Source of the DNA: an uncultured Methanosarcinales archaeon
GTDB lineage: Archaea > Nanobdellota > Nanobdellia > Woesearchaeales > UBA9642
Assembly (NCBI GenBank): GCA_964545585.1
Contig: CAZJFT010000001.1
Span: 6,056 to 70,055, forward strand
Direction of reading: 5' to 3'
Length of the DNA: 64,000 bases
The position numbers and the translations under genes are program-made. Of the stretch, positions 10,893 to 48,276 are shown piece after piece; position 1 is the stretch's first letter; the number at the start of each line of letters is the position of its first letter. Under the pieces are notes generated by a model. It worked only from the letters and a program-made list of their open reading frames with translations, did not search any database and was not told the origin of the DNA.

Positions 10893-11480
10893 ATGAAAGA
10901 CAAGGAAATAAAGGAATTTATAGCAAAAGGACATATATTATGCAAAGTAATATTTGAGATGGCCGGGAACCCTAAAGAGCACGTTGAATCTTCATTGAAA
11001 AAATACATTTCTGCAATAAAAGAAGATCCTAATTATATATTCATGAACGAATATTTCGCTCCTGCAGAAGAGAATGAAGGAATATGGAGCACTTTCTTCG
11101 AATCGGACGTGCTTGTATCAAATTTCGAGAAGTTGAACTTGCTTTGTTTCAACCTGACTCCTGCAAGCATAGAGATAATAGAGCCAGAAAATTTTACATT
11201 GACACAAAAAGAGCTGACATATTGGTATAATGACCTGCTGTCCAAGCTACATGAAGTATCTATCACATTGAAAAACTTCACTTCTGAGAATGAGATGCTG
11301 AAAGTAAACCTAAATAGGGCCATAAGGAACAGCATAGTTCTATCATTAACAGAACCTAAGTCGGTTGAAGAGATATCTGCAAAAGTAGGGATAGACAAGG
11401 AGCATATACAACCATTCATAGATGCGTTAGTTAAAGAGAAGAGCATAATTGTCGACGGTAATAAATATATGAAAAAATGA
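10893..11480 (+). CDS. Hypothetical protein with C-terminal winged-helix; possible divergent ScpA/kleisin partner of ScpB
   Basis: 195 aa; ATGA overlap with downstream ScpB (operon); C-terminus SVEEISAKVGIDKEHIQPFIDALVKEKSII looks wHTH; no canonical ScpA N-terminal motif seen. Confidence 0.3.
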   Translation: MKDKEIKEFIAKGHILCKVIFEMAGNPKEHVESSLKKYISAIKEDPNYIFMNEYFAPAEENEGIWSTFFESDVLVSNFEKLNLLCFNLTPASIEIIEPENFTLTQKELTYWYNDLLSKLHEVSITLKNFTSENEMLKVNLNRAIRNSIVLSLTEPKSVEEISAKVGIDKEHIQPFIDALVKEKSIIVDGNKYMKK

Positions 11481-12670
11481 AGAGTTCTAAGAAAAATAAA
11501 AGTAAGAATCTATCGATAAAGAAAAAAAATTCTAAGAAGATAGTTGAAAATCCGAAAATTAAACAAAAAAGGGAAATTAAGAAACCTGAGATAGAAGAAA
11601 TAAAGCAAGAAACACTCCCTATAAAAGAAAAGATAATTGAAACCCTTATAGAGGATAAAATAGAAGAAGAACCTCTTGTTGAAGATGTTGAAAAAATATC
11701 GCCTGAGCCAGTAAAAGCAAAATCAGGAAAAAAAACAATTATAAAAACTGAAGAGGATATAAATGATGAAAAAAATAAGGTCGAAGCGCTCCTTTTTGCA
11801 CACGGAAAATATATTGATGAATCGATGATATCTGAACTCTGCGGCGTAGACAAAAGACGACTGAAGAGAGTGTTGGAGAACTTAAGAGAAGATTATGAAA
11901 AAAAAGATTCTGCGCTTGCAATATTCCAAGAAGGAAACAGCTGGAAGATAAATGTGAGGGAGAAATATCTTTCAATAGTAAGAAAAATAGTCGCTGACAC
12001 TGAATTGCCTAAATCAGTCATGGAAACATTGGCAGTCATAGCATGGAAGTCGCCTATATATCAATCCGAGATCGTCAGGATAAGAGGAAACAAATGCTAT
12101 GACCATATAGATGTATTGGAAGAAGCGGGATTTGTCACCAAAGACAAGAAAGGGAGAAGCTATGTACTGAAAACGACAGACAAGTTCTACAATTACTTCG
12201 AGATAGATCATGGGAATCTCAAGAGCATATTCGAAGAGGTCAAGGTGCCCATAAAAGAGGAGCAGAAGACGCTTGAAGAAGACATCAAAGTCCCTGAGAA
12301 TATTGATATTGAGAAGAAGATAGAGCATATAGAAGTTAAGAAATGGACAGAGACAGATGAAGAAAAAGAGCAGCAAAGACAATTTCTTGATATGATGGAA
12401 GGAAAAATACAGGAAGTCAAGCAGAAGACTGCGATTTTTGAGGAAGAGATGCCAAGTCCTAAGAGGGAAGTCACGATAATAGAGGAGACAATAATAGCGG
12501 TTCCTAAAAATGAAGAGGTACCAGAATCTTCGGAAAAGGAGAATCCCAAAAATTACGCGGAAGCAACCCAAGAAGACAATAAAAGACCTAAATCATTGAC
12601 AAAGAAGCAGCTTGAAAAGAAATTCCGTGATGAACTTCTCAGAGTAAGAGAAAAGATGGAGAAGAAATGA
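11477..12670 (+). CDS. scpB: Segregation and condensation protein B (ScpB) with K/E-rich N- and C-terminal extensions
   Basis: Core EALLFAHGKYIDESMISELCGV...SVMETLAVIAWKSPIYQSEIVRIRGNKCYDHIDVLEEAGFV...DKFYNYFEI aligns with the tandem wH domains of ScpB. Confidence 0.65.
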   Translation: MKSSKKNKSKNLSIKKKNSKKIVENPKIKQKREIKKPEIEEIKQETLPIKEKIIETLIEDKIEEEPLVEDVEKISPEPVKAKSGKKTIIKTEEDINDEKNKVEALLFAHGKYIDESMISELCGVDKRRLKRVLENLREDYEKKDSALAIFQEGNSWKINVREKYLSIVRKIVADTELPKSVMETLAVIAWKSPIYQSEIVRIRGNKCYDHIDVLEEAGFVTKDKKGRSYVLKTTDKFYNYFEIDHGNLKSIFEEVKVPIKEEQKTLEEDIKVPENIDIEKKIEHIEVKKWTETDEEKEQQRQFLDMMEGKIQEVKQKTAIFEEEMPSPKREVTIIEETIIAVPKNEEVPESSEKENPKNYAEATQEDNKRPKSLTKKQLEKKFRDELLRVREKMEKK

Positions 12671-13269
12671 TATCTGTAGATATCGAATCCAGTGGAGGAG
12701 ATTTTCTCAAGCACGGCATATTCCAGATAGGTGCGATAGACACTGATAACCCTAATAATTATTTCTTGGAGACATGCAGGATTGACGACGATGATGAGAT
12801 AGATCCACAAGCGATAATTATAACGGGCGCGAACGAAGAATCATTGAGGGATGAATCATTGCAGAGCCAGAAAGAGATGATCGAGAAATTCATCAAATGG
12901 ATGGAAACAGTACAGATAAAGAATTTCTTGTGCCATAATCCGCAATTTGACCATGCATTCATAAGATGTAAATTAAGCAAATATAATCTTCCAGATATCC
13001 TTGCATGGAGGGCCTTCGACATACACAGCATCGCGAGCTTGAAGTTTCTCGAGACAACAGGAAGCCTTTTTATAAAAGACAATGAAAGCGCCATAACCCT
13101 ATCTGCAATCATAAAATTCTGCGGCATCGATTATGAACGTGGAGAGCATAATGCTCTTGAGGATGCTGAACTGACAGCAGAATGCTACGCGCGGATAATG
13201 TATGGACGAAATCTCTTGAAGAAATATTCTGGACACCCTATACCGGAGCATTTGAGAAACAATCATTAA
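12667..13269 (+). CDS. DEDDh 3'-5' exonuclease (DnaQ/epsilon-like)
   Basis: 200 aa; Exo I DIESSG, Exo II HNPQFDHAF, Exo III HNALEDAE; ATGA overlap with scpB stop. Confidence 0.65.
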   Translation: MISVDIESSGGDFLKHGIFQIGAIDTDNPNNYFLETCRIDDDDEIDPQAIIITGANEESLRDESLQSQKEMIEKFIKWMETVQIKNFLCHNPQFDHAFIRCKLSKYNLPDILAWRAFDIHSIASLKFLETTGSLFIKDNESAITLSAIIKFCGIDYERGEHNALEDAELTAECYARIMYGRNLLKKYSGHPIPEHLRNNH

Positions 13270-13927: not shown

Positions 13928-16411
13928 ATGTCCGACGATAACATAGTGCAGGATCCTAACGTAAACAATGGAAATAATGGCAATTCTAAGATAATAGCTC
14001 AGCCTATTGAAGATGAGATGAAGAAATCATATTTAGATTATGCCATGTCTGTAATAGTCGGAAGAGCACTCCCTGACGTAAAAGACGGCCTTAAGCCGGT
14101 GCATAGAAGAATACTTTATGCGATGAATGAGTTGAGCAACACGTACAATAAACCATTCAAGAAGTGTGCAAGAATCGTTGGAGAGGTCCTCGGTAAGTAT
14201 CATCCTCATGGAGACAGTGCAGTATATGACTCTCTTGTAAGGATGGCACAGGATTTCTCATTAAGATATCCTCTTGTCCAGGGACAAGGTAACTTTGGCT
14301 CCATAGATGGAGATAATGCTGCAGCGATGAGATATACTGAAGCGAGGCTTTCACGAATAAGCGATGAGATGCTTCAGGACATAGATAAAGATACCGTAGA
14401 ATTCACGCCGAATTTCGATGGCACACTGAAAGAGCCTATAGTTTTACCGAGCAAATTTCCTAATCTATTGGTGAATGGTAGTTCGGGCATTGCGGTAGGC
14501 ATGGCGACAAATATCCCGCCGCACAATCTGAGGGAATCATGTGAGGCAGTAATTGCATTGATAGACAATCCTGAGATAACGATTGAAGAGATATCGCAGA
14601 TTGTAAAGGGACCGGATTTCCCCACAGGCGCAGAGATTGTGGGAAGAAAAGGGATAATCGATGCATACAAGAACGGCAAAGGCATAATACGAATAAGGTC
14701 TATAATAGATATAGAGAAAAAGAAAGAGAAGAATAGGCTCGTTGTAAAGGAAATACCTTACCAAGTCAATAAAGCAACGCTCGTAGAGGACATAGCGAAT
14801 CTTGTCAGGGACAAGAAGATAACAGAGATATCTGACTTGAGGGATGAATCGGACAGGGACGGGGTAAGGATAGTCATTGAGTTGAAGAAGGATGCAAATC
14901 CAGAGATAGTCAAGAACTTATTGTATAATCATTCAAGATTGCAGGACACATTTGGGATAAACTTCGTCGCGCTAGTGAACAATGAACCGCGGCTTTTGAG
15001 CATAAAATCTTATTTGAGCAATTATCTCGATCATAGGATAACAATAGTACGCAAGAGGACAGCATATGACCTCAAGAAGGCAGAGGAGAGAGCACACATA
15101 CTTGAGGGGTTAAGGATAGCTCTCAAGAATATCGATCCCATAGTCGCACTCATAAAGAAGAGCAAGTCTGCAGATGACGCAAAGAAAGGACTCATAGAAG
15201 GATATGCGCTCACTGAAGTGCAGGCGGCAGCAATACTTGACATGAAGCTCCAGAGGATTGCTGTACTTGAGCAGGAAAAGATAAACAATGAATTCAATGA
15301 TCTGATGGTTAAGATAAAGGAATACAAAGAGATACTTGATTCAGAAGTAAGAATAAGAGACATAATAAAATCAGAGATGAGCGAGATAATAAGTACATAT
15401 TCAAAGAATGATTCAAGAAAGACAAAGATAATCGATGTGGCAGATGAAGAATTAGACTTTGAAGTAGAGGACTTGATACCTGATGAGCCGGTAGTCATAA
15501 CGCTCACGCATTCAGGATATGTAAAGAGGGTCCCTACAGAGTATTATAAGGTACAGAACAGGGGTGGACGAGGGATAATAGCATCAGATTTGAAAGAAGG
15601 AGACTACATTGAAGACGTGTTCGTCGCAAAGACACACTCATATTTATTGATAATAACGAACAAAGGAACATTACATTGGATGAAAGTATACAAGATACCT
15701 GACGCATCAAGACAATCCATGGGCAAGGCAATAGTCAACCTGCTAGAGCTTGATGCCGATGAAAAAGTGAATGCGATAATCCCTGTAAGGGAATTCGATG
15801 ATAAGCATTATCTAGTCATGGCCACGAAGAACGGGACAATAAAGAAGACAAACTTGATAGAATTCAGCAATCCCCGAAAAGGCGGCATAATGGCCATAAA
15901 TATAGATTCAGAGAATAATGACAGACTAATAAATGTAAGGATGACAGATGGAACGAAGAATATCATGATCGCTACAAAGGGTGGTCAGGCAGCATTATTT
16001 GATGAACAGGACGTAAGGCCTACAGGAAGACAATCACAGGGAGTCAGAGGAATAAAGCTTGAGAAAGATGACGAAGTCATAGGAATGATAATAGCCGATC
16101 CTGACAAGCAAGTCCTTACATTGACAGAGAACGGTTATGGAAAGAGGACACCAACAGCGGAGTACAGGCTTATATCAAGAGGCGGAAAAGGCGTCAGGAA
16201 CATATTATGCTCAGAAAGGAATGGAAAAGTGGTTGCAGTTGTTGCTGTGAAAGATGAAGATGAAGTGATGTTGATAAGCAGGAAAGGAATACTCATAAGG
16301 ACAGAATGCTCACAGATATCACAAGTCGGCAGAAGCACGCAAGGCGTAAGGTTGATGAAATTATCGGCCGGTGACAAGGCCACAAGCATGACTAAAATCA
16401 TGAAAGAATAG
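13928..16411 (+). CDS. gyrA: DNA gyrase subunit A
   Basis: 827 aa; [20 protein letters not shown], active-site Tyr context [11 protein letters not shown]-terminal beta-pinwheel repeats; no gyrB adjacent. Confidence 0.9.
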
Positions 16412-21297: not shown

Positions 21298-21576
21298 CTA
21301 TTCGTCGCTTCCTTCTGGAGCATTCGGTATTGCTGACCTGTTTATAATCATTATGTCACCGATGCTCTTCACAAGATTATGCGGGATAATGACTCCTTTT
21401 GCTGAGCCTAAGACCTTGTTCAAGAATGAATTCTTTGTGGCTCTTACTCTCCAGCCAGAGATCTTCGTATTCTGTATAATCGCTTCTTCAACGTCTCCAA
21501 AGTAGTCTCCTGTATCAGTAAAAACTCTCATATCATAAGCTTCAGATATTTTTTTCATTTTTAACATATCAATCAC
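21298..21576 (-). CDS. PRC-barrel domain protein (paralog A)
   Basis: 92 aa; DYFGDVEEAIIQ...GVIIPHNLVKSIGDIMIINRS resembles PRC barrel. Confidence 0.5.
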   Translation of the reverse strand: MIDMLKMKKISEAYDMRVFTDTGDYFGDVEEAIIQNTKISGWRVRATKNSFLNKVLGSAKGVIIPHNLVKSIGDIMIINRSAIPNAPEGSDE

Positions 21577-21613
21577 CTTCTATAAATAGTATAATAAACA
21601 ATAGGCCGCTAAT

Positions 21614-22246
21614 TTAAATAAGTTTCGATTTTCGAGTGGTGGAAACCAACTCTGGCTTGAACACGAACGCATCCTTATCATCGAAATAACCGCATCTGAA
21701 ATTCTCTAGAGGAACGCCTGTTCTTTTGCTTAACATCAATGCATAGAAATTAGTCTGTGTAGACGCATATTTCTCTTTCACCGCATTAGGCTTGTAATCC
21801 CAAATCCAGACCTTCCCATCCTCAATACGCAGCGCATCAATATGCCCTGTCAATGGATCGGAAGTCTCAAAGACATGAGTATATGAAGGGAATTCCTTGT
21901 CAAGAAGCCATATGGGGACTTCGATGCTTATAGTCTTATTATCATTCTGGAGCATGAACATCTGTACGTTGCTATGCGCAGTCTTGAACCTGTTGCTTTC
22001 TAAGCCTAATGCTGCAAGCCCAGAAACCTCATGACCTTTGATTTTCTTTATGTCCAAGTCGAGGTTCATGCGCAACCCTGATCCTCTAGGGCCTTTCTGG
22101 AAGTATTCATCAGGACAATTCTCACGTACATCAATCAAGTATCTCCTTAAAGAATCAAACTTATGGTTGCATAACTCTTCAGTCTTAGGAATATGAACCC
22201 TGTAATGATAGAACCATCCATGCTTAAAAGACTTATGAATTATCAT
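21614..22246 (-). CDS. PD-(D/E)xK (RecB/Cas4-like fold) nuclease-family protein
   Basis: 210 aa; GHIDALRIEDGKVWIWDYKPN (D...ExK) followed by QTNFYALML (QxxxY). Confidence 0.45.
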   Translation of the reverse strand: MIIHKSFKHGWFYHYRVHIPKTEELCNHKFDSLRRYLIDVRENCPDEYFQKGPRGSGLRMNLDLDIKKIKGHEVSGLAALGLESNRFKTAHSNVQMFMLQNDNKTISIEVPIWLLDKEFPSYTHVFETSDPLTGHIDALRIEDGKVWIWDYKPNAVKEKYASTQTNFYALMLSKRTGVPLENFRCGYFDDKDAFVFKPELVSTTRKSKLI

Positions 22247-22343
22247 AAAAGGAAAAATCTGGAAATAGAATATAAATTTATTGATTTAACTACCTTTTAT
22301 GAATAATCATAAAAAGAATAAATTAAGAAAGAAAATATAAAGT

Positions 22344-22568
22344 TTATCTTCTCTTCTTCCTTGCCAGGATCTGTCTCTCCTGAGCCTCAATCTTTTTCTC
22401 TTCTGCAAGCACTTGAAGCTCTTGTTTTGCGATGACGCCAGTCATCTTCTCTATATTCTCATCCATCCTTGCGATTCTTCTCTCCAATAGAACAAGAACT
22501 CTCAAGCTGTACACTATTGCAGCCAATGTACCTATAATAACCGCCAGTATTACCGTATCTAAAGCCAT
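22344..22568 (-). CDS. Small membrane-anchored coiled-coil protein
   Basis: 74 aa; N-terminal TM helix then heptad repeats. Confidence 0.4.
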   Translation of the reverse strand: MALDTVILAVIIGTLAAIVYSLRVLVLLERRIARMDENIEKMTGVIAKQELQVLAEEKKIEAQERQILARKKRR

Positions 22569-22665
22569 TTTAGCACCTCTTTTAATAAAACGTCTTAATT
22601 TATTAACTAGCGTACAGGGTATTTAAATATTTTGCTATTTTCCAGCACTGTACATCAACCCAAAA

Positions 22666-23055
22666 CTATTTTCCAATAAGTGTATTGAAATCCAAACCCT
22701 TCCTTTTTGCGATGATTACATCCACGAAATAGCTCTTGTTCTTCAATTCAAGATCCTCTATATTCAAGAAAAACCAATCTATCCTGTCAAAACGAACGGC
22801 GACCCATGCTTCTGCACCAAATTTGTTAGCGAAATACACCAATTCATCAATCTCTTTCTTGGTGAAATACTTTTTTGTGTCATTGACTGCCTTGCACTCG
22901 ATAGCAAGCCTTCGCAGATTGTTCCCTGCAAGGATGTCGGGACTTGGGTTCTGCATGCTCCCGGAGCCCGCACTTCTTATAGCTACCCATCCACTATCGA
23001 AGAATTGATGTATCAAGTCTCTCTCAGCGTTCGAACCTTTTGCTTTCTTGTTCAT
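22666..23055 (-). CDS. hjc: Holliday junction resolvase Hjc
   Basis: 129 aa; KGSNAERDL, PDILAG, ECK catalytic core of archaeal Hjc. Confidence 0.8.
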   Translation of the reverse strand: MNKKAKGSNAERDLIHQFFDSGWVAIRSAGSGSMQNPSPDILAGNNLRRLAIECKAVNDTKKYFTKKEIDELVYFANKFGAEAWVAVRFDRIDWFFLNIEDLELKNKSYFVDVIIAKRKGLDFNTLIGK

Positions 23056-23921
23056 TTTATTAGATAAGATATGTATGCCTTAAATGTTTTATCCTTCTCA
23101 TAATCATAATCTTTAAGCCTTACCCAGACGAGATAATGGTCGGAATATTCTGTTGTTTCTATTCCATAAGCGACATAATCTTTTTTTGCATCTTGATTGA
23201 GTATTATCCTGTCATATGCACAATCACTGTTTCCTACTGTTGTATCATCAGAATTCGTAATCACCCAATACCATCCGTTGAATTTGCCGAACGCAGTCTC
23301 ATAATCCTCATCATAATAATTGCAGTCTGCATTCAAGTCGCCCAAAACCACGATATTGCCAGGGTTTCTTTCATTTTTAATCAAATCTTCCAGGGCATAT
23401 ATCTCTTGAGTCGCATCATCTGGCTTCGTATGGATATTATACGCCACAATAGAATAATTCCTAGACAGTATCGTTACACGTATTGGAGGCCGCTCCCACC
23501 TGTCTAAAGCATCAGGAGAATAGTCATATAATGAAATATTGAACTTTTGCAAATATATCACTCCGTACTGCTCCTTAGATGAACTCCTGCCGGCCCTTGA
23601 TGATATTATACAGCGATATTCTGGGAGACGCGCACATAATTCTGTAAATGCACTCCCGTCCTTATCACGTATCTCCTGCAGGAACACAATATCATAATCG
23701 CTTATCTTTTCTGCATAATAATCAACGATCACTGTATCGTTCGCTTTCTTATCGCCGAATATCTGAAGGTTCCAATTAGCGACTGTAAAAGTCTCATTGA
23801 TCAAATATTCATCTTGAGATTTGATGAATGAATAATATGAATAAACAAAAACTGCGACAAGAACAATTATTATGATACACGCAATAAACATTATTATTGC
23901 ATTTTTCCTCTTCATAATCAT
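23052..23921 (-). CDS. Membrane-anchored DNase I-like (endonuclease/exonuclease/phosphatase family) nuclease
   Basis: 289 aa; N-terminal TM; VANWNLQIFG, FLQEI, GDLNADCNY; 4-nt overlap with hjc start region. Confidence 0.65.
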   Translation of the reverse strand: MIMKRKNAIIMFIACIIIIVLVAVFVYSYYSFIKSQDEYLINETFTVANWNLQIFGDKKANDTVIVDYYAEKISDYDIVFLQEIRDKDGSAFTELCARLPEYRCIISSRAGRSSSKEQYGVIYLQKFNISLYDYSPDALDRWERPPIRVTILSRNYSIVAYNIHTKPDDATQEIYALEDLIKNERNPGNIVVLGDLNADCNYYDEDYETAFGKFNGWYWVITNSDDTTVGNSDCAYDRIILNQDAKKDYVAYGIETTEYSDHYLVWVRLKDYDYEKDKTFKAYISYLIK

Positions 23922-24009
23922 ATGTAGTATTGTGCTATTTAAAATATTTTACAAAAAATAGCCGGAAGAAAAACGAAAATCGAATAATTATATAAAAAAT
24001 AGAAAAATA

Positions 24010-24306
24010 TTATATTATGTCCTCTTCTGCAAGGACGACGAAGTCTCCTACAGCCATCACTGCTGAGAATGGCACAAGTATCGAGCCATCTTTTGTCTTC
24101 TCAAGCTCTAGCTTCTCTATGTATGACGTAGGGTTCACTAACACTACATGTATAAGTTCACCTGACTTTGTCTCAAATATAATATCTCCAACCTCACCGA
24201 ATCTCTTTCCTGATTTCGAGATAACCGTCTTTCCTATCAATTGTCTTGAAAATTTCTTCTCTTCCATACTTTTTGGATCAGCTTTCATTTCTGGCATTAC
24301 AATCAC
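24010..24306 (-). CDS. PRC-barrel domain protein (paralog B)
   Basis: 98 aa; LIGKTVISKSGKRFGEVGDIIFETKSGELIHVVL...ILVPFSAVMAVGDFVVL. Confidence 0.6.
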   Translation of the reverse strand: MIVMPEMKADPKSMEEKKFSRQLIGKTVISKSGKRFGEVGDIIFETKSGELIHVVLVNPTSYIEKLELEKTKDGSILVPFSAVMAVGDFVVLAEEDII

Positions 24307-24419
24307 CCTTAAACGCGATGTACTTTAAAGTACTTGTTTTGATGATAAAAATAAATGGCCGCTATATATAAAGTTTTCTATTCTAGAATAGTGTAATTTA
24401 AGCAGGAGCAAGCATAAAT

Positions 24420-25280
24420 TTATGTTTTTTTACCATCAATCAGGCGCTTCATTTCTGCCTCATCATAGCATATTTCCTTGAAAGAGCATTTTACGCATTT
24501 GTTCTTGTTATCAGTAAAATCTGGGGGCATCTTAGAATCTAGGACGCTCTGCGCCCCAGAAACCACGCCGAGAACTTCCTCTTTGAGCATCGTATTCATC
24601 ATAAGAATCCGTTTCTCATCAGAACCTCTATAACGCAAGACTCCTTCTGAGACGTTCTTTCCCTGGTCTTCAAGCATTAGAAGATACGCGCCAAGCTGTA
24701 TCCTATGGGTATCCCACATGCCTTTCTGCGGAAATTTGCCAGTCTTCAATTCTACAGGAATATACAATTTTTCAGATTCTTCCGCAGGAATATCATGCAC
24801 TTCCAACACATCTATTATTCCTGAAATATTCAATTTTTCAGACTTAAAATACTGCTCAGAGATTATTTTAGGAGTGAGTCTCTCCCATAATTCCTCGCCG
24901 AAAATCTTATGTTCCTTTACAAATTCCGAAACATTCAATGCCCTTACCTTTGCCTCTTCCTCAAAATCAGACCAGTACTCATTGAATAGGTCGAGCATCT
25001 TGATGTCGAATTGCTTCAGTTCAGACTTGTTCATTATTATCGCATTGCGCAAAAATTTAGAGAATCCTCTCCTATAAATATCGAAAATATCCTCATACCT
25101 GTCAGAATTTATTGACTTGACAAGATCCTTCTCATTCTTGTTGATGAATTCATGAGTTATGTGCCAGACTTTTCCCTTAACTAAAGCCTCCTTCGGCGGC
25201 TCCTTCACCTCTAGAACGGAGCTTATGAAAAGCTTCCTAGGACAATAAATATATGCAGAAAGCTGAGTTGCATTGACCAT
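24420..25280 (-). CDS. Cas4-like (DUF83) PD-(D/E)xK exonuclease, standalone
   Basis: 286 aa; N-terminal YIYCPRK; VELKTGKFPQKGMWDTHRIQLGAYLLML; C-terminal CVKCSFKEIC cysteine cluster; no cas genes or CRISPR nearby. Confidence 0.65.
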   Translation of the reverse strand: MVNATQLSAYIYCPRKLFISSVLEVKEPPKEALVKGKVWHITHEFINKNEKDLVKSINSDRYEDIFDIYRRGFSKFLRNAIIMNKSELKQFDIKMLDLFNEYWSDFEEEAKVRALNVSEFVKEHKIFGEELWERLTPKIISEQYFKSEKLNISGIIDVLEVHDIPAEESEKLYIPVELKTGKFPQKGMWDTHRIQLGAYLLMLEDQGKNVSEGVLRYRGSDEKRILMMNTMLKEEVLGVVSGAQSVLDSKMPPDFTDNKNKCVKCSFKEICYDEAEMKRLIDGKKT

Positions 25281-25325
25281 TATAAAGAGATGATCACATT
25301 ATTTAAATAATTTTGGGGAGAATGA

Positions 25326-25853
25326 CTAGTGAAATAATTTTACAGAACCAAACTCTAGAAAATTAGGGGTCTCATTAATATATAGCATATCAAAAGACTT
25401 CTTCATCATCATGAATCCTCTTCCGTTTCCAGTAAATTTAAGAGGATTATTTTCCGTCAGAGCCGCAGATATTGCCTCGTAATTAACTGGGGCAGATTTT
25501 GTGATAAGGTATGTATGCATGAAAGAAGGCGAGATGTTGATGCCGAGCAAAAAAATGTCATTTTTATCAACCTCTTTCTTAAAATTATAAACATGCTTCA
25601 CACCATTCTCCACAAGCTCATTCGTACCCATCACAATTAATTGAGAAACCCTATCATCAATAGAGTGATAAGACAATATCTTTGTCATTATAGAATCGAC
25701 GAACTCCGAATCTGCATTCTGCGGTGTTCTAAAGAACTTGTATGAGGAGAATTTAGGGATTAATACGTGATTCTCCGCATGATATTTGCTGAAATGGTCA
25801 TTATTCCATATTATTTTCGCAGCATATCTGCTTGCATCCGGCACGACATCCAT
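25326..25853 (-). CDS. Hypothetical protein
   Basis: 175 aa; weak GHKL-like impressions (NGVKHV, GNGRGF), not reliable. Confidence 0.35.
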   Translation of the reverse strand: MDVVPDASRYAAKIIWNNDHFSKYHAENHVLIPKFSSYKFFRTPQNADSEFVDSIMTKILSYHSIDDRVSQLIVMGTNELVENGVKHVYNFKKEVDKNDIFLLGINISPSFMHTYLITKSAPVNYEAISAALTENNPLKFTGNGRGFMMMKKSFDMLYINETPNFLEFGSVKLFH

Positions 25854-42748: not shown

Positions 42749-43543
42749 TCATTGATCATCCAGCGGGCTTTTAACATTGATGCTTGTTCTTGCTGTATGT
42801 AAATAAACCATTGTCGTCTCAACACTTATATGTCCAAGCAATGATTGCACAGCCGTAATACCATAACCATCCTCAATCAAGTGCGTAGCGAATGAATGCC
42901 TGAATGTATGCGGATGCACATCTTTTTTGACTCCAGAATCTCTACATGCTCTCTTTATTATCTCCTGTACGCTTCGCATACTATAATGTGCCCCCTTATT
43001 CCCCATAAATAGGTAATGGGCCCCAAAATAATTCTTTAATTCTTCAGATACTGATTTTGGCAGTATGAACATCCTATCCTTTCCACCCTTCCCATTCCTC
43101 ACATAACCTATAAAATTTTGTAAATCAATATCTTCAGGCCTTAACCTCACCACTTCTGACACTCTCAATCCTGCACCATACATCAATGAGATAATCAGTT
43201 TCTGTTTAGGATTATTTATGGCATCGATTATTCTTCTGACCTCTTCTTTTGTCAGGCATGTTGGCAGCCTCTTCGGTCTCTTCGCATACCTTAATCCTAG
43301 ATTCATATTCTTATGCAGGACTTCGACCATCATGAACCTTAAGGCGGCATGCACAACATTTATGGTGTTGCCTGGACTATTCTTATATCTCTCCAAAAAC
43401 AATCTGATGTCCTTCTTTGATATCTTCTTAGGATCAGGATGCCTCTTTAAGAAATGCCTGATAAAAAGCAGATATGTGACCCTAGTTTTTGGGCTCAGAC
43501 GTCTAAACTCCATCTCCTCTCGACATGCCTCTAGAACATCCAT
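42749..43543 (-). CDS. xerA: Tyrosine recombinase (XerA/XerC/D-like)
   Basis: 264 aa; catalytic region HPHTFRHSFATHLIEDGYGITAVQSLLGHISVETTMVYLH (R..HxxR...Y); too short for an IntI-type additional domain. Confidence 0.8.
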   Translation of the reverse strand: MDVLEACREEMEFRRLSPKTRVTYLLFIRHFLKRHPDPKKISKKDIRLFLERYKNSPGNTINVVHAALRFMMVEVLHKNMNLGLRYAKRPKRLPTCLTKEEVRRIIDAINNPKQKLIISLMYGAGLRVSEVVRLRPEDIDLQNFIGYVRNGKGGKDRMFILPKSVSEELKNYFGAHYLFMGNKGAHYSMRSVQEIIKRACRDSGVKKDVHPHTFRHSFATHLIEDGYGITAVQSLLGHISVETTMVYLHTARTSINVKSPLDDQ

Positions 43544-46577: not shown

Positions 46578-46640
46578 TCTGCGGACTCTTCGAGTCCTTG
46601 CCTCACTAGCGTTCGGGGTGCTTAACACGCGATTAGTTTC
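46564..46640. repeat. GC-rich mosaic spacer element 4
   Basis: atagtggcgctactctgcggactcttcgagtccttgcctcactagcg (direct copy of element-1 block; hairpin GGACTCttcGAGTCC) + attagtttcaattc (direct copy from element 2). Confidence 0.55.
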
Positions 46641-48276
46641 AATTCTCTTTCTTCTTCACAATCTTCTTTTTCCTTCCAGAAGTGTTGTTTGCCATCCATA
46701 TTTTCCGCGATGCGTATTGTGCCGGATTTTTTATCTTTGGGCAAAATCCGTCTGGGTGGCAGAATTGTGTGTCTATCATGTATCCTTTATTGTCGCAATT
46801 AGGGGGAGATAATTTCTCTTTTTGTGACTTATGATATCGTAGTTGTCCTTTGATGTATGTCTCGCGTAATTTGTCCGGAGAATTTCTTTCGTTCCATTTC
46901 AAAACATACTCCGCTATCCTTTCATGTGGCCAATTGCATGATGAAAGGAAGTTTATCAATATCAACAATGCACGCTTCTTGCCATCCTCTAACCCGGCAG
47001 ATATGTGTTGTATGCATGGAGGGAAGTATTCTTCAGGGATTGCCTGCGCATTCTCTTCAATATTAGAGTCTTTTTTATATTCTCTCTTATATGTCTCTTT
47101 CAATGAATCCTTCTTCTGTTTCTCCGTCTGGAAATCGAATGCTTTCTGGAATAATTGCTCTGCCTCTGAAGACTTGCACGATTCTCTTTCTAAGAAAGCG
47201 TAAGGTTTGAACTTCGAAGGCTCTGCTTCTGATTTCTCGAATTTCAATATTCTCTTTATGTCGAACGGCATCGAGACAAGGCCGGTCTTTTCATGAAGTG
47301 AATAAGGCATCCTGTAAAGGTGCCTTGAACTTATCAGTATCGTGTCTACTGCAACTATCTTTGAGAGGTCGAACTCTTTGCGAACAGAGTCGGAGCCGCA
47401 CTTGCATATGCTCTTCTTGATAGGGTGTTTCTCCATAATCTTCTTGCATTTAGGGCATTGCATGAACGGCTTATCTGCGTCCTCAAGAGAATTTTCACAA
47501 TATGGACAGATATATTGTATCCTGTCCTTAGGCATCTCTTTTATTGAAGAATCACATTTATTGCACTTTATGACTATCATATCTTCTTTCTTTGTGCCTG
47601 TCTCTGATTCGAGTCGAGATATCGGAACAGACACTTTTCCAAAGCGTATCTTCTCTTCATCCACAACAATAAGATTCTTATCGACATAATCGACTATATA
47701 TGCCGCAATCCTTCTAGGTCCGTCAGGGAAAAGGTCCTTCACATCAAAATATTTACCGTCAAGATAATATTGTTTTTTAGGGAATGCTTCAAACGGAACA
47801 GCGATATGGAAACCTTTTGAACCGGAGAATTTTACAGTCACTGAATCGATCCCGTGGTCCTTCAATGCTTTTATGAAAACGTAAGCTGCAAGCTTGCTGA
47901 ACGTCCAGTAAGGACAGTCAATATCTAATATCAAATCCCATCCCTTGCGCAGATCATCTATCTCATTCTTTTTCAAATTAGGATTTATCTGCAACGGATT
48001 AGACCATAATTCCTCAGAGCAATGGAATGAAGTGGCCCCTTTCTTAGCAGACTCAAGAATATCATTCTCATACATCAATGTGTCAGGACGCTTTCCGAAT
48101 GATTCATTATAACGAACAGCAATCTCCTTATCCATAGCATACATTAGAAGAAGTTTCTGGACCTCTTTTCTCTTATAATATGATAATGTCTGATGGAGCT
48201 CAAGCATGAAGGATGAGAATAAGACTGCGTTTATATAGGTTTTTGTAGAATGTCTAGTGCTTGCACTCAACAGCAT
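46639..48276 (-). CDS. priS: DNA primase, fused PriS catalytic domain + PriL-CTD-like Fe-S domain (true start possibly at an internal Met downstream of the fur overlap)
   Basis: PriS core DLILDIDCPYWTF...SVTVKFSGSKGFHIAVPF; Zn ribbon CNKCD...CPYC; C-terminal PPCIQHISAGLEDGKKRALLILINFLSSCNW...PPNCDNKGYMIDTQFCHPDGFCPKI resembles the PriL C-terminal domain. Confidence 0.7.
   Translation of the reverse strand: MLLSASTRHSTKTYINAVLFSSFMLELHQTLSYYKRKEVQKLLLMYAMDKEIAVRYNESFGKRPDTLMYENDILESAKKGATSFHCSEELWSNPLQINPNLKKNEIDDLRKGWDLILDIDCPYWTFSKLAAYVFIKALKDHGIDSVTVKFSGSKGFHIAVPFEAFPKKQYYLDGKYFDVKDLFPDGPRRIAAYIVDYVDKNLIVVDEEKIRFGKVSVPISRLESETGTKKEDMIVIKCNKCDSSIKEMPKDRIQYICPYCENSLEDADKPFMQCPKCKKIMEKHPIKKSICKCGSDSVRKEFDLSKIVAVDTILISSRHLYRMPYSLHEKTGLVSMPFDIKRILKFEKSEAEPSKFKPYAFLERESCKSSEAEQLFQKAFDFQTEKQKKDSLKETYKREYKKDSNIEENAQAIPEEYFPPCIQHISAGLEDGKKRALLILINFLSSCNWPHERIAEYVLKWNERNSPDKLRETYIKGQLRYHKSQKEKLSPPNCDNKGYMIDTQFCHPDGFCPKIKNPAQYASRKIWMANNTSGRKKKIVKKKEN

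Follow-up and report, generated by a model that had tools for sequence, protein, structure and literature searches.

Clustered nuclease and PRC-barrel genes in a woesearchaeal genome: probably a juxtaposition of housekeeping genes, not one functional system

Introduction

When several nuclease genes and two PRC-barrel genes follow one another on the same strand of a small archaeal genome, do they form one functional system, or are they neighbours that share nothing but a strand? The question is raised by a block of genes at positions 21298-25853 of a 64-kb stretch of DNA from an uncultured archaeon of the Woesearchaeales (64,000 nucleotides of contig CAZJFT010000001.1, assembly GCA_964545585.1; hereafter, the window). 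In the direction of reading, the block encodes a hypothetical protein of 175 amino acids (aa), a Cas4-like nuclease, a PRC-barrel protein (PRC-B), a DNase I homologue (the DNase), the Holliday-junction resolvase Hjc, a 74-aa membrane protein, another PD-(D/E)xK protein (the second nuclease) and a second PRC-barrel protein (PRC-A). A preliminary description of this DNA saw in them either a module for DNA uptake, scavenging and recombination or a defence system with PRC-barrel adaptors. The analysis presented here leads to a plainer answer, namely that the block probably consists of housekeeping genes, each transcribed on its own, which became neighbours in this lineage, and is not one functional system.

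The comparison relies on 80 loci of species-representative genomes that were retrieved with the Cas4-like protein as anchor; every gene of the window was mapped onto them, and the best-supported start was chosen for each open reading frame (ORF). Family memberships, residue conservation, the synteny pattern and promoter elements were read directly from these data, and it is from them that we infer all the biochemical roles discussed below.

Arrangement and transcription of the block

The position of every ORF and its location on the minus strand, as first described, are both borne out. The number of genes is not: nine were announced, yet the ORFs are eight, as in the list given by the preliminary description itself, and the intergenic gaps (37-122 nucleotides, nt) are too small to hold another gene. 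This run of eight is the longest same-strand run in the window, the others comprising 6, 6, 5 and 5 genes. The gaps along the block are 45, 122, 88, -4, 97, 97 and 49 nt, and the sole overlap is that of 4 nt between the DNase and Hjc genes (ATGA at 23052-23055). The remaining junctions are ordinary spacers, and to call them “short or overlapping” was therefore an overstatement outside that one pair.

Promoter-like elements are abundant. The TATA-like octamer TTTAWATA occurs 33 times in the window against an expectation of 14.9, a number that none of 100 shuffles reached, and five of the eight genes (those of the 175-aa protein, the Cas4-like nuclease, PRC-B, the DNase and the 74-aa protein) have an exact box upstream, with near-matches before the second nuclease and PRC-A. 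The box TTTAAATA lies 22-29 nt upstream of the 175-aa gene, 20-27 nt upstream of the Cas4-like gene, at 23936-23943 for the DNase and at 22620-22627 for the 74-aa gene; PRC-B has the box TTTATATA at 24365-24372, with a ribosome-binding site, GGGTGAT, in the same spacer. To judge from its sequence, the block does not behave as a single operon: it holds one overlap, TATA boxes precede most of its genes, and the gene set is dispersed in distant relatives.

The accumulation of nucleases, for its part, had been described as an “unusual concentration”. Nuclease-type genes number nine among the approximately 62 of the window, and four of them fall within six consecutive genes in 9% of random gene orders, so that within the window the concentration is not significant (P about 0.09). 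Nucleic-acid enzymes are abundant in the window as a whole; outside the block they are represented by RNase J, a DEDD exonuclease, FEN1, a tRNA-splicing endonuclease and RNase Z.

Conservation of the neighbourhood across Woesearchaeota

Is the arrangement conserved in relatives? Among the close ones (L001-L008, whose Cas4-like proteins are at least 53% identical) it is, together with unrelated flanks that include an amylase-family gene, a DUF6938 gene, two unknowns and TYW1, and this conservation is ordinary local synteny. Two members are exceptions to it: the DNase gene is found at its position in three of seven close relatives (L002, L003 and L007) and is absent from the other four (L001, L004, L006 and L008), and the 175-aa gene is missing everywhere. 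Beyond the close relatives the set is dispersed. Hjc, the second nuclease and PRC-A are located elsewhere in distant relatives; in two of these (L030 and L078), PRC-A sits in another neighbourhood with neither Hjc nor the second nuclease adjoining it, and the neighbours of the second nuclease in four distant genomes are TrmB, TBP, MCM and TFIIE, or else FEN1 and PolB, but in no case a PRC gene. In a distant clade in which the Cas4-like protein is approximately 42% identical, the neighbourhood is wholly different, with the order aminoacyl-tRNA synthetase, Cas4-like, PRC-B and RFC small subunit. The synthetase, a class I enzyme, is taken to be TyrRS, and the gene after PRC-B, to judge by its sequence, would encode the RFC small subunit.

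The RFC small subunit gene of those relatives has features of its own. In four loci (L028, L054, L060 and L064; e.g., L060 1736-4285) the RFC-like gene that follows PRC-B codes for approximately 850 aa instead of the usual 320 or so, and the extra sequence, intein-like, splits the protein in two. In loci L009-L079 the RFC small subunit gene is followed downstream by two to four tandem paralogues (cluster 0, 134 members), proteins of approximately 340 aa whose N-terminus resembles that of a lipoprotein; a large Cys-rich membrane protein (700-1250 aa) comes next and then a protein of approximately 400 aa, and together these make a strongly conserved surface-protein cluster.

The PRC-barrel proteins as probable division proteins

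All the components of the block appear from their sequences to belong to known families. Every domain identification proposed at the outset passed profile searches at curated thresholds, and the catalytic residues behind the nuclease motifs are conserved in alignments of homologues. What changes the picture is the identity of the PRC-barrel proteins. Both match PF05239 above its cut-off of 21.2 bits (PRC-B with 37.5, PRC-A with 24.9). PRC-A is matched to CdpB1 of Archaeoglobus fulgidus (8onw_A/D and the N-terminal domain of 8qzo) with an E-value of 1.9e-11 as a single sequence and of 1.1e-13 as a profile, and neither type of search matched it to the CdpB2 chain of that species. The best PDB match of PRC-B, in turn, is 8onw_H together with the C-terminal domain of 8qzo, i.e., A. 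fulgidus CdpB2 (AfCdpB2, the name given to that domain in a later paper), with sequence and profile scores of 22.5 and 21.1 bits; the corresponding values are 16.3 and 18.3 for AfCdpB1 and 20.3 and 17.8 for MTH1859. Thus, by sequence, PRC-A is clearly a CdpB1-type cell-division protein, and PRC-B is tentatively of the CdpB2 type, because its match to CdpB2 outscores those to CdpB1 and MTH1859 only narrowly. The chain lengths of 8ONW (92 and 76 residues, four heterodimers) suggest that this entry is the CdpB1:CdpB2 crystal described in a preprint.

According to two preprints, CdpB1 binds SepF and CdpB2, the pair builds alternating filaments, and the FtsZ ring becomes disorganised upon loss. All DPANN archaea have PRC-domain proteins, on average approximately two copies per genome, and the occurrence of these proteins follows that of FtsZ and SepF. 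The statement that PRC barrels are otherwise known from CdvA and the photosynthetic reaction centre is therefore outdated by the single-domain CdpB1 and CdpB2, and the duplication that had seemed unusual is to be expected, two copies per genome being the archaeal norm; moreover, the two copies match, PRC-B tentatively, two different subunits of the CdpB1:CdpB2 complex. Like their counterparts in Haloferax volcanii and A. fulgidus (8ONW, 8QZO), the two proteins are single PRC-barrel domains of approximately 90 aa and paralogues within one genome. By homology, PRC-A and PRC-B would form alternating heteropolymers, bound to SepF through the CdpB1-type subunit, that organise the FtsZ division ring.

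The ATG of PRC-A is preceded by GGTGAT, and the 95-aa version of PRC-B agrees with the public annotation of an identical protein (P0233). PRC-A is 74-93% identical in relatives. The homologue search for PRC-B was filled by relatives at least 73% identical, all of them Woesearchaeota, and across loci where the Cas4-like protein is only about 42% identical PRC-B retains 71-95% (about 77%), a strong conservation that fits a polymer-forming structural protein.

A Dna2-like solo Cas4 and its adjacency to PRC-B

The Cas4-like protein matches PF01930 (Cas_Cas4) with an E-value of 2.7e-19 and TIGR00372 with 103 bits (cut-off, 65). In an alignment of 24 homologues reaching down to 40% identity, C13, C262, C265, C271, D157, E177, K179, Q195 and Y199 are invariant or nearly so, the cysteines being laid out as one N-terminal Cys and a C-terminal CxxCx5C. 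Neither a CRISPR array within the window nor a cas gene among its ORFs or among the recurrent neighbours in the 80 related loci was found; the protein is therefore a solo Cas4, and its initial identification as a DUF83 nuclease outside any CRISPR-Cas context stands. Solo Cas4 proteins are typical of DPANN archaea, where they are vertically inherited and where a role in repair or defence has been speculated (Hudaiberdiev et al. 2017, PMC5704561). The present protein shares with them the Cas4 motifs, the four-Cys cluster, the lack of a CRISPR-cas context and an apparently vertical inheritance, and differs in a helical insertion of approximately 100 residues (about residues 30-135). Because of this insertion, its AlphaFold2 model (predicted local distance difference test, pLDDT, 92) is closer to Dna2 than to canonical Cas4: the top Foldseek match is Dna2 (5ean; E 1.9e-9, TMq 0.62-0.64), followed by Cas4 (8d3l; TMq 0.54), and residues 1-50 give a weak Pfam match to Dna2. 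With Dna2 and the AddB- and AdnAB-type Fe-S nucleases it would have in common the PD-(D/E)xK core, an Fe-S cluster joining the N- and C-termini and the helical insertion; unlike Dna2, it is a stand-alone protein of 286 aa with no helicase domain, and the likeness is one of predicted fold. Homologues are found throughout Woesearchaeota (38-90% identity), and their sequences mark the gene as a vertically inherited core gene of this group. Its fold, its recurrent RFC neighbour and its vertical inheritance point to 5'-flap or DNA-end processing in replication and repair.

Do the Cas4-like nuclease and PRC-B then form a two-gene unit that couples DNA-end processing, in replication or recombination, to the divisome, for example by freeing the septum of DNA or resolving DNA there, with RFC and Hjc as further recruits, the former in distant relatives and the latter in the present lineage? 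In 61 of the 73 species-level loci with room for it, PRC-B lies on the same strand within 500 nt downstream of the Cas4-like gene; in nine more it follows on that strand within 5 kb, after insertions, and in three it is lacking. The supposition that PRC-barrel genes might recur beside Cas4-like genes thus proves correct in Woesearchaeota. Furthermore, this is the sole adjacency common to near and distant clades, its median spacer is only 72 nt, and the genes around it (RFC small subunit, Hjc) belong to replication and repair. Nonetheless, we regard such a unit as unlikely. PRC-B has its own conserved promoter, consisting of a TFB recognition element (BRE) and a TATA box, and a Shine-Dalgarno site in the spacer: a TATA-like box is present there in 47 of 57 related loci, with a peak 52 to 56 nt before the PRC-B ATG (-52 to -56), and a GAGGG ribosome-binding site comes after it. 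A promoter of its own for PRC-B makes an operon less likely for this pair. The two proteins also evolve at very different rates, as their identities of about 42% and 77% indicate. Finally, the distant clade is strongly syntenic over more than 10 genes, and the adjacency seen there is therefore weak evidence. The literature speaks in the same direction: the accessible part of a survey of 1675 PRC-barrel neighbourhoods in the CdpB work reports no nuclease of the Cas4-like kind, so that a PRC-B gene directly following a Cas4-family gene sets Woesearchaeota apart from the neighbourhoods described in it. The order Cas4-like, PRC-B (and RFC), as well as the pairing of a coiled-coil protein with the second nuclease treated below, are apparently absent from that part of the survey and from PMC5704561, and would be modest new observations of synteny.

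Several points nevertheless weigh against the interpretation of the block as independently transcribed housekeeping genes. The adjacency of Cas4-like and PRC-B has outlasted a divergence in which every other neighbour changed, which is beyond what passive synteny would lead one to expect and hints at some coupling. The placement of PRC-B with CdpB2 and not with another PRC branch hangs on approximately 21-22 versus 16-18 bits. The 64-kb window contains no gene for either FtsZ or SepF, and the division context is therefore drawn from the literature. Lastly, transcription may read through from the Cas4-like gene into PRC-B.

The spacer between both genes has one further feature: two perfect 14-nt palindromes, CTATTCTAGAATAG (24378-24391) and GTACTTTAAAGTAC (24320-24333), flank the TATA box of PRC-B; in L007 they show no visible conservation.

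The DNase I homologue and Hjc

The DNase matches Exo_endo_phos (PF03372) with an E-value of 2.6e-15 and human and bovine DNase I with E-values of 8e-22 to 3e-21. N51, E83, H164, D195, N197, D237 and H262 are invariant among four orthologues, and they presumably correspond to the bovine DNase I residues, in part by the alignment and in part by the C-terminal SDHY. The protein was first described as a membrane-anchored DNase, and the strong hydrophobic segment at its N-terminus (Kyte-Doolittle hydropathy of 3.55 over residues 8-26) agrees with this, as does its being a true DNase I homologue. Compared with eukaryotic DNase I and DNase1L3, within the endonuclease/exonuclease/phosphatase (EEP) superfamily, it resembles the human and bovine enzymes at E-values of approximately 1e-21 and keeps all the catalytic residues; it differs in having an N-terminal hydrophobic anchor instead of the eukaryotic secretion signal and in being patchily distributed among close relatives. 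The very AT-rich spacer between PRC-B and the DNase contains, at 23976-24014, a 20-nt tandem duplication, and TATA-like boxes at 23936-23943 and 23989-23996, which is consistent with a DNase gene inserted together with its own promoter.

Hjc, a vertically inherited core gene of Woesearchaeota, scores 91.3 bits to PF01870 (E 3.9e-26; cut-off, 21.1) and 126 to the NF040854 equivalog (cut-off, 70). Its translation shows the pattern E12...D40...E53-x-K55, whose residues presumably correspond to those of Pyrococcus Hjc. It has the equivalog-level match, length and catalytic pattern expected of an archaeal Hjc, the only difference being the lineage-specific overlap with the DNase gene, and it would resolve Holliday junctions.

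That overlap, together with a DNase that by its residues is catalytically intact, is what speaks for an uptake module, in which a surface DNase would nick or degrade foreign DNA while cytoplasmic nucleases and Hjc process the imported fragments; minimal nucleotide synthesis and a possible use of extracellular DNA have been reported for Woesearchaeota. As an account of the whole block this is very unlikely, given that four of the seven close relatives lack the DNase at this position and keep all the other genes, that those genes are conserved where no DNase is nearby, and that no DNA-translocation or competence gene was found among the ORFs of the window. For the DNase alone, in contrast, a role in DNA uptake or scavenging, as its sequence suggests, has about an even chance of being right: it would be an optional surface-anchored enzyme, most likely breaking down external DNA for nucleotide salvage. 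The literature offered nothing specific on surface nucleases of DPANN archaea.

The weakest proposal, that of an uncharacterised defence or anti-host-DNA system with PRC-barrel proteins as nuclease adaptors, has in its favour that Cas4-family models figure in defence databases and that solo Cas4 has been discussed in that sense (PMC5704561), but it is largely refuted and scarcely credible, since PADLOC matched nothing beyond Cas4 models (by the two PD-(D/E)xK proteins), the window lacks CRISPR arrays and cas genes, all the core members, in contrast to defence islands, show vertical inheritance and high conservation, a role of the PRC proteins in division is documented, and the locus presents neither a compositional anomaly nor a mobile-element hallmark. 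A genomic or defence island was likewise considered and rejected: the GC content at the block is unremarkable, the other genes of the window are housekeeping genes, and the lone integrase-family gene, 17 kb away (42749-43543), is taken for a putative housekeeping Xer-type recombinase.

The second nuclease and the 74-aa membrane protein

The second nuclease had been described as a RecB-fold PD-(D/E)xK protein with a QxxxY motif, and this is confirmed by its match to PDDEXK_1 (PF12705; 30.3 bits against a cut-off of 22) and by the invariance of D137, D150-x-K152 and Q164xxxY168 among 18 homologues. Its AlphaFold2 model (pLDDT 91.7) finds loose Foldseek matches, led by the nuclease domains of AddA, RecB, RecE and SSO0001 (Cas4), with E-values of approximately 4e-4 and a low TMq of 0.35 for the first three. 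It has 858 homologues, the best 120 of which are 56-97% identical, and by this sequence record it, too, is a vertically inherited core gene of Woesearchaeota. A tandem duplication of a nuclease-PRC unit (Cas4-like with PRC-B, second nuclease with PRC-A) was considered; it was discarded, the two nucleases being barely alignable (hhalign probability, 3.7%), PRC-A and PRC-B coming from different ancient branches, and the adjacency of the second nuclease to PRC-A being missing in all four distant genomes examined.

The gene directly upstream codes for the 74-aa protein, which has no family match in Pfam or NCBIfam. Its residues 1-19 have a Kyte-Doolittle hydropathy of 2.41, and the sequence consists of a transmembrane (TM) helix, a coiled coil and a Lys/Arg-rich tail, with the conserved core IIIGTLAAIVYSLRxLVLLERRIARMDEN. 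Orthologues occupy the same place, directly upstream of the second nuclease, in L001-L008 and also in the distant L081 and L083, in which they are 63-77% identical over the N-terminal 43-62 residues; overall, the gene precedes the second nuclease in two of the three distant genomes with readable DNA. The distant pairs are located at 9716-10708 of L081 and 9713-10654 of L083, with a gap of approximately 30 nt. The second nuclease and its small membrane coiled-coil partner thus constitute another conserved core pair, a link that, like that of Cas4-like with PRC-B, persists at great evolutionary distance; from their sequences, the two proteins may be a membrane-tethered nuclease pair.

Over the start codon of the second nuclease (22233-22252) there is a near-palindrome, TTATGAWWWTCATAA, which is repeated 60 nt upstream (22293-22312), the copies flanking a TATA-like box; they may be a putative operator pair.

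Features of the block and of the remaining window

The coordinates of the block are collected in Table 1. Its first gene, placed between the amylase-family gene and the Cas4-like gene, is a near-ORFan: the 175-aa protein has no match in Pfam, NCBIfam, PADLOC or the PDB and only six cluster representatives among 1.84 billion, one of which is a protein of 1990 aa with six matching stretches. None of the 80 related loci holds a homologue, so that the gene is unique to the present genome, and in L005, whose Cas4-like protein is 90% identical, only some 95 nt occupy its place. A reading of this protein as a GHKL ATPase, prompted by the stretches ELVENGVKH and GNGRGF as seen by eye, found no profile or PDB support and was abandoned.

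Table 1. Genes and spacer of the block, in the direction of transcription (positions are those of the window).
Feature	Positions	Strand	Basis and remarks
Hypothetical protein, 175 aa	25326..25853	-	ORF; lineage-specific insertion, outside any conserved unit
Solo Cas4-family PD-(D/E)xK nuclease (Cas4-like), 286 aa	24420..25280	-	PF01930, TIGR00372; four-Cys Fe-S motif, ~100-aa helical insertion
Cas4-like/PRC-B spacer	24298..24419	-	PRC-B promoter, ribosome-binding site, two 14-nt palindromes
PRC-barrel protein B (PRC-B), 95 aa from ATG	24010..24297	-	PF05239; tentatively CdpB2-type
DNase I-family nuclease with N-terminal membrane anchor, 289 aa	23052..23921	-	PF03372; accessory gene
Hjc Holliday-junction resolvase, 129 aa	22666..23055	-	PF01870, NF040854
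TM/coiled-coil protein with basic tail, 74 aa	22344..22568	-	Hydropathy; no family match
RecB-fold PD-(D/E)xK nuclease (second nuclease), no Cys cluster, 210 aa	21614..22246	-	PF12705
PRC-barrel protein A (PRC-A), 88 aa from ATG common to orthologues	21298..21564	-	PF05239; CdpB1-type

Two other arrangements in the window deserve mention. At 46639-48276, a single ORF of 545 aa matches the domains of both the small and the large primase subunits (a PriS-PriL fusion). At 11477-13269, a 4-nt overlap joins the gene of a long ScpB-domain protein (397 aa) to that of a DEDD (RNase T-type) exonuclease, and this pair is located just upstream of gyrase A (13928-16411).

Implications

In the picture that emerges, a small woesearchaeal genome would keep repair nucleases, CdpB-type division proteins and an optional surface DNase side by side, each acting independently. 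The main value of the analysis is one of correction, in that the 2023-24 work on CdpB and comparative synteny turn an exotic-looking cluster of nucleases and adaptors into known housekeeping families. The patchy, surface-anchored DNase I homologue is consistent with the proposed life of Woesearchaeota on external nucleic acids, and the tiny membrane coiled-coil protein that accompanies a PD-(D/E)xK nuclease in a conserved pair offers a second small lead for the biology of DPANN archaea. The order-wide adjacency of the Cas4-like gene and PRC-B, in turn, is a testable hint at the function of solo Cas4. That the Dna2-like solo Cas4 is functionally tied to CdpB2 and, in most Woesearchaeota lineages, also to the RFC small subunit seems to us quite improbable; if true, it would reveal an unrecognised link between the completion or repair of replicated DNA and the assembly of the FtsZ/SepF/CdpB divisome in ultra-small archaea.

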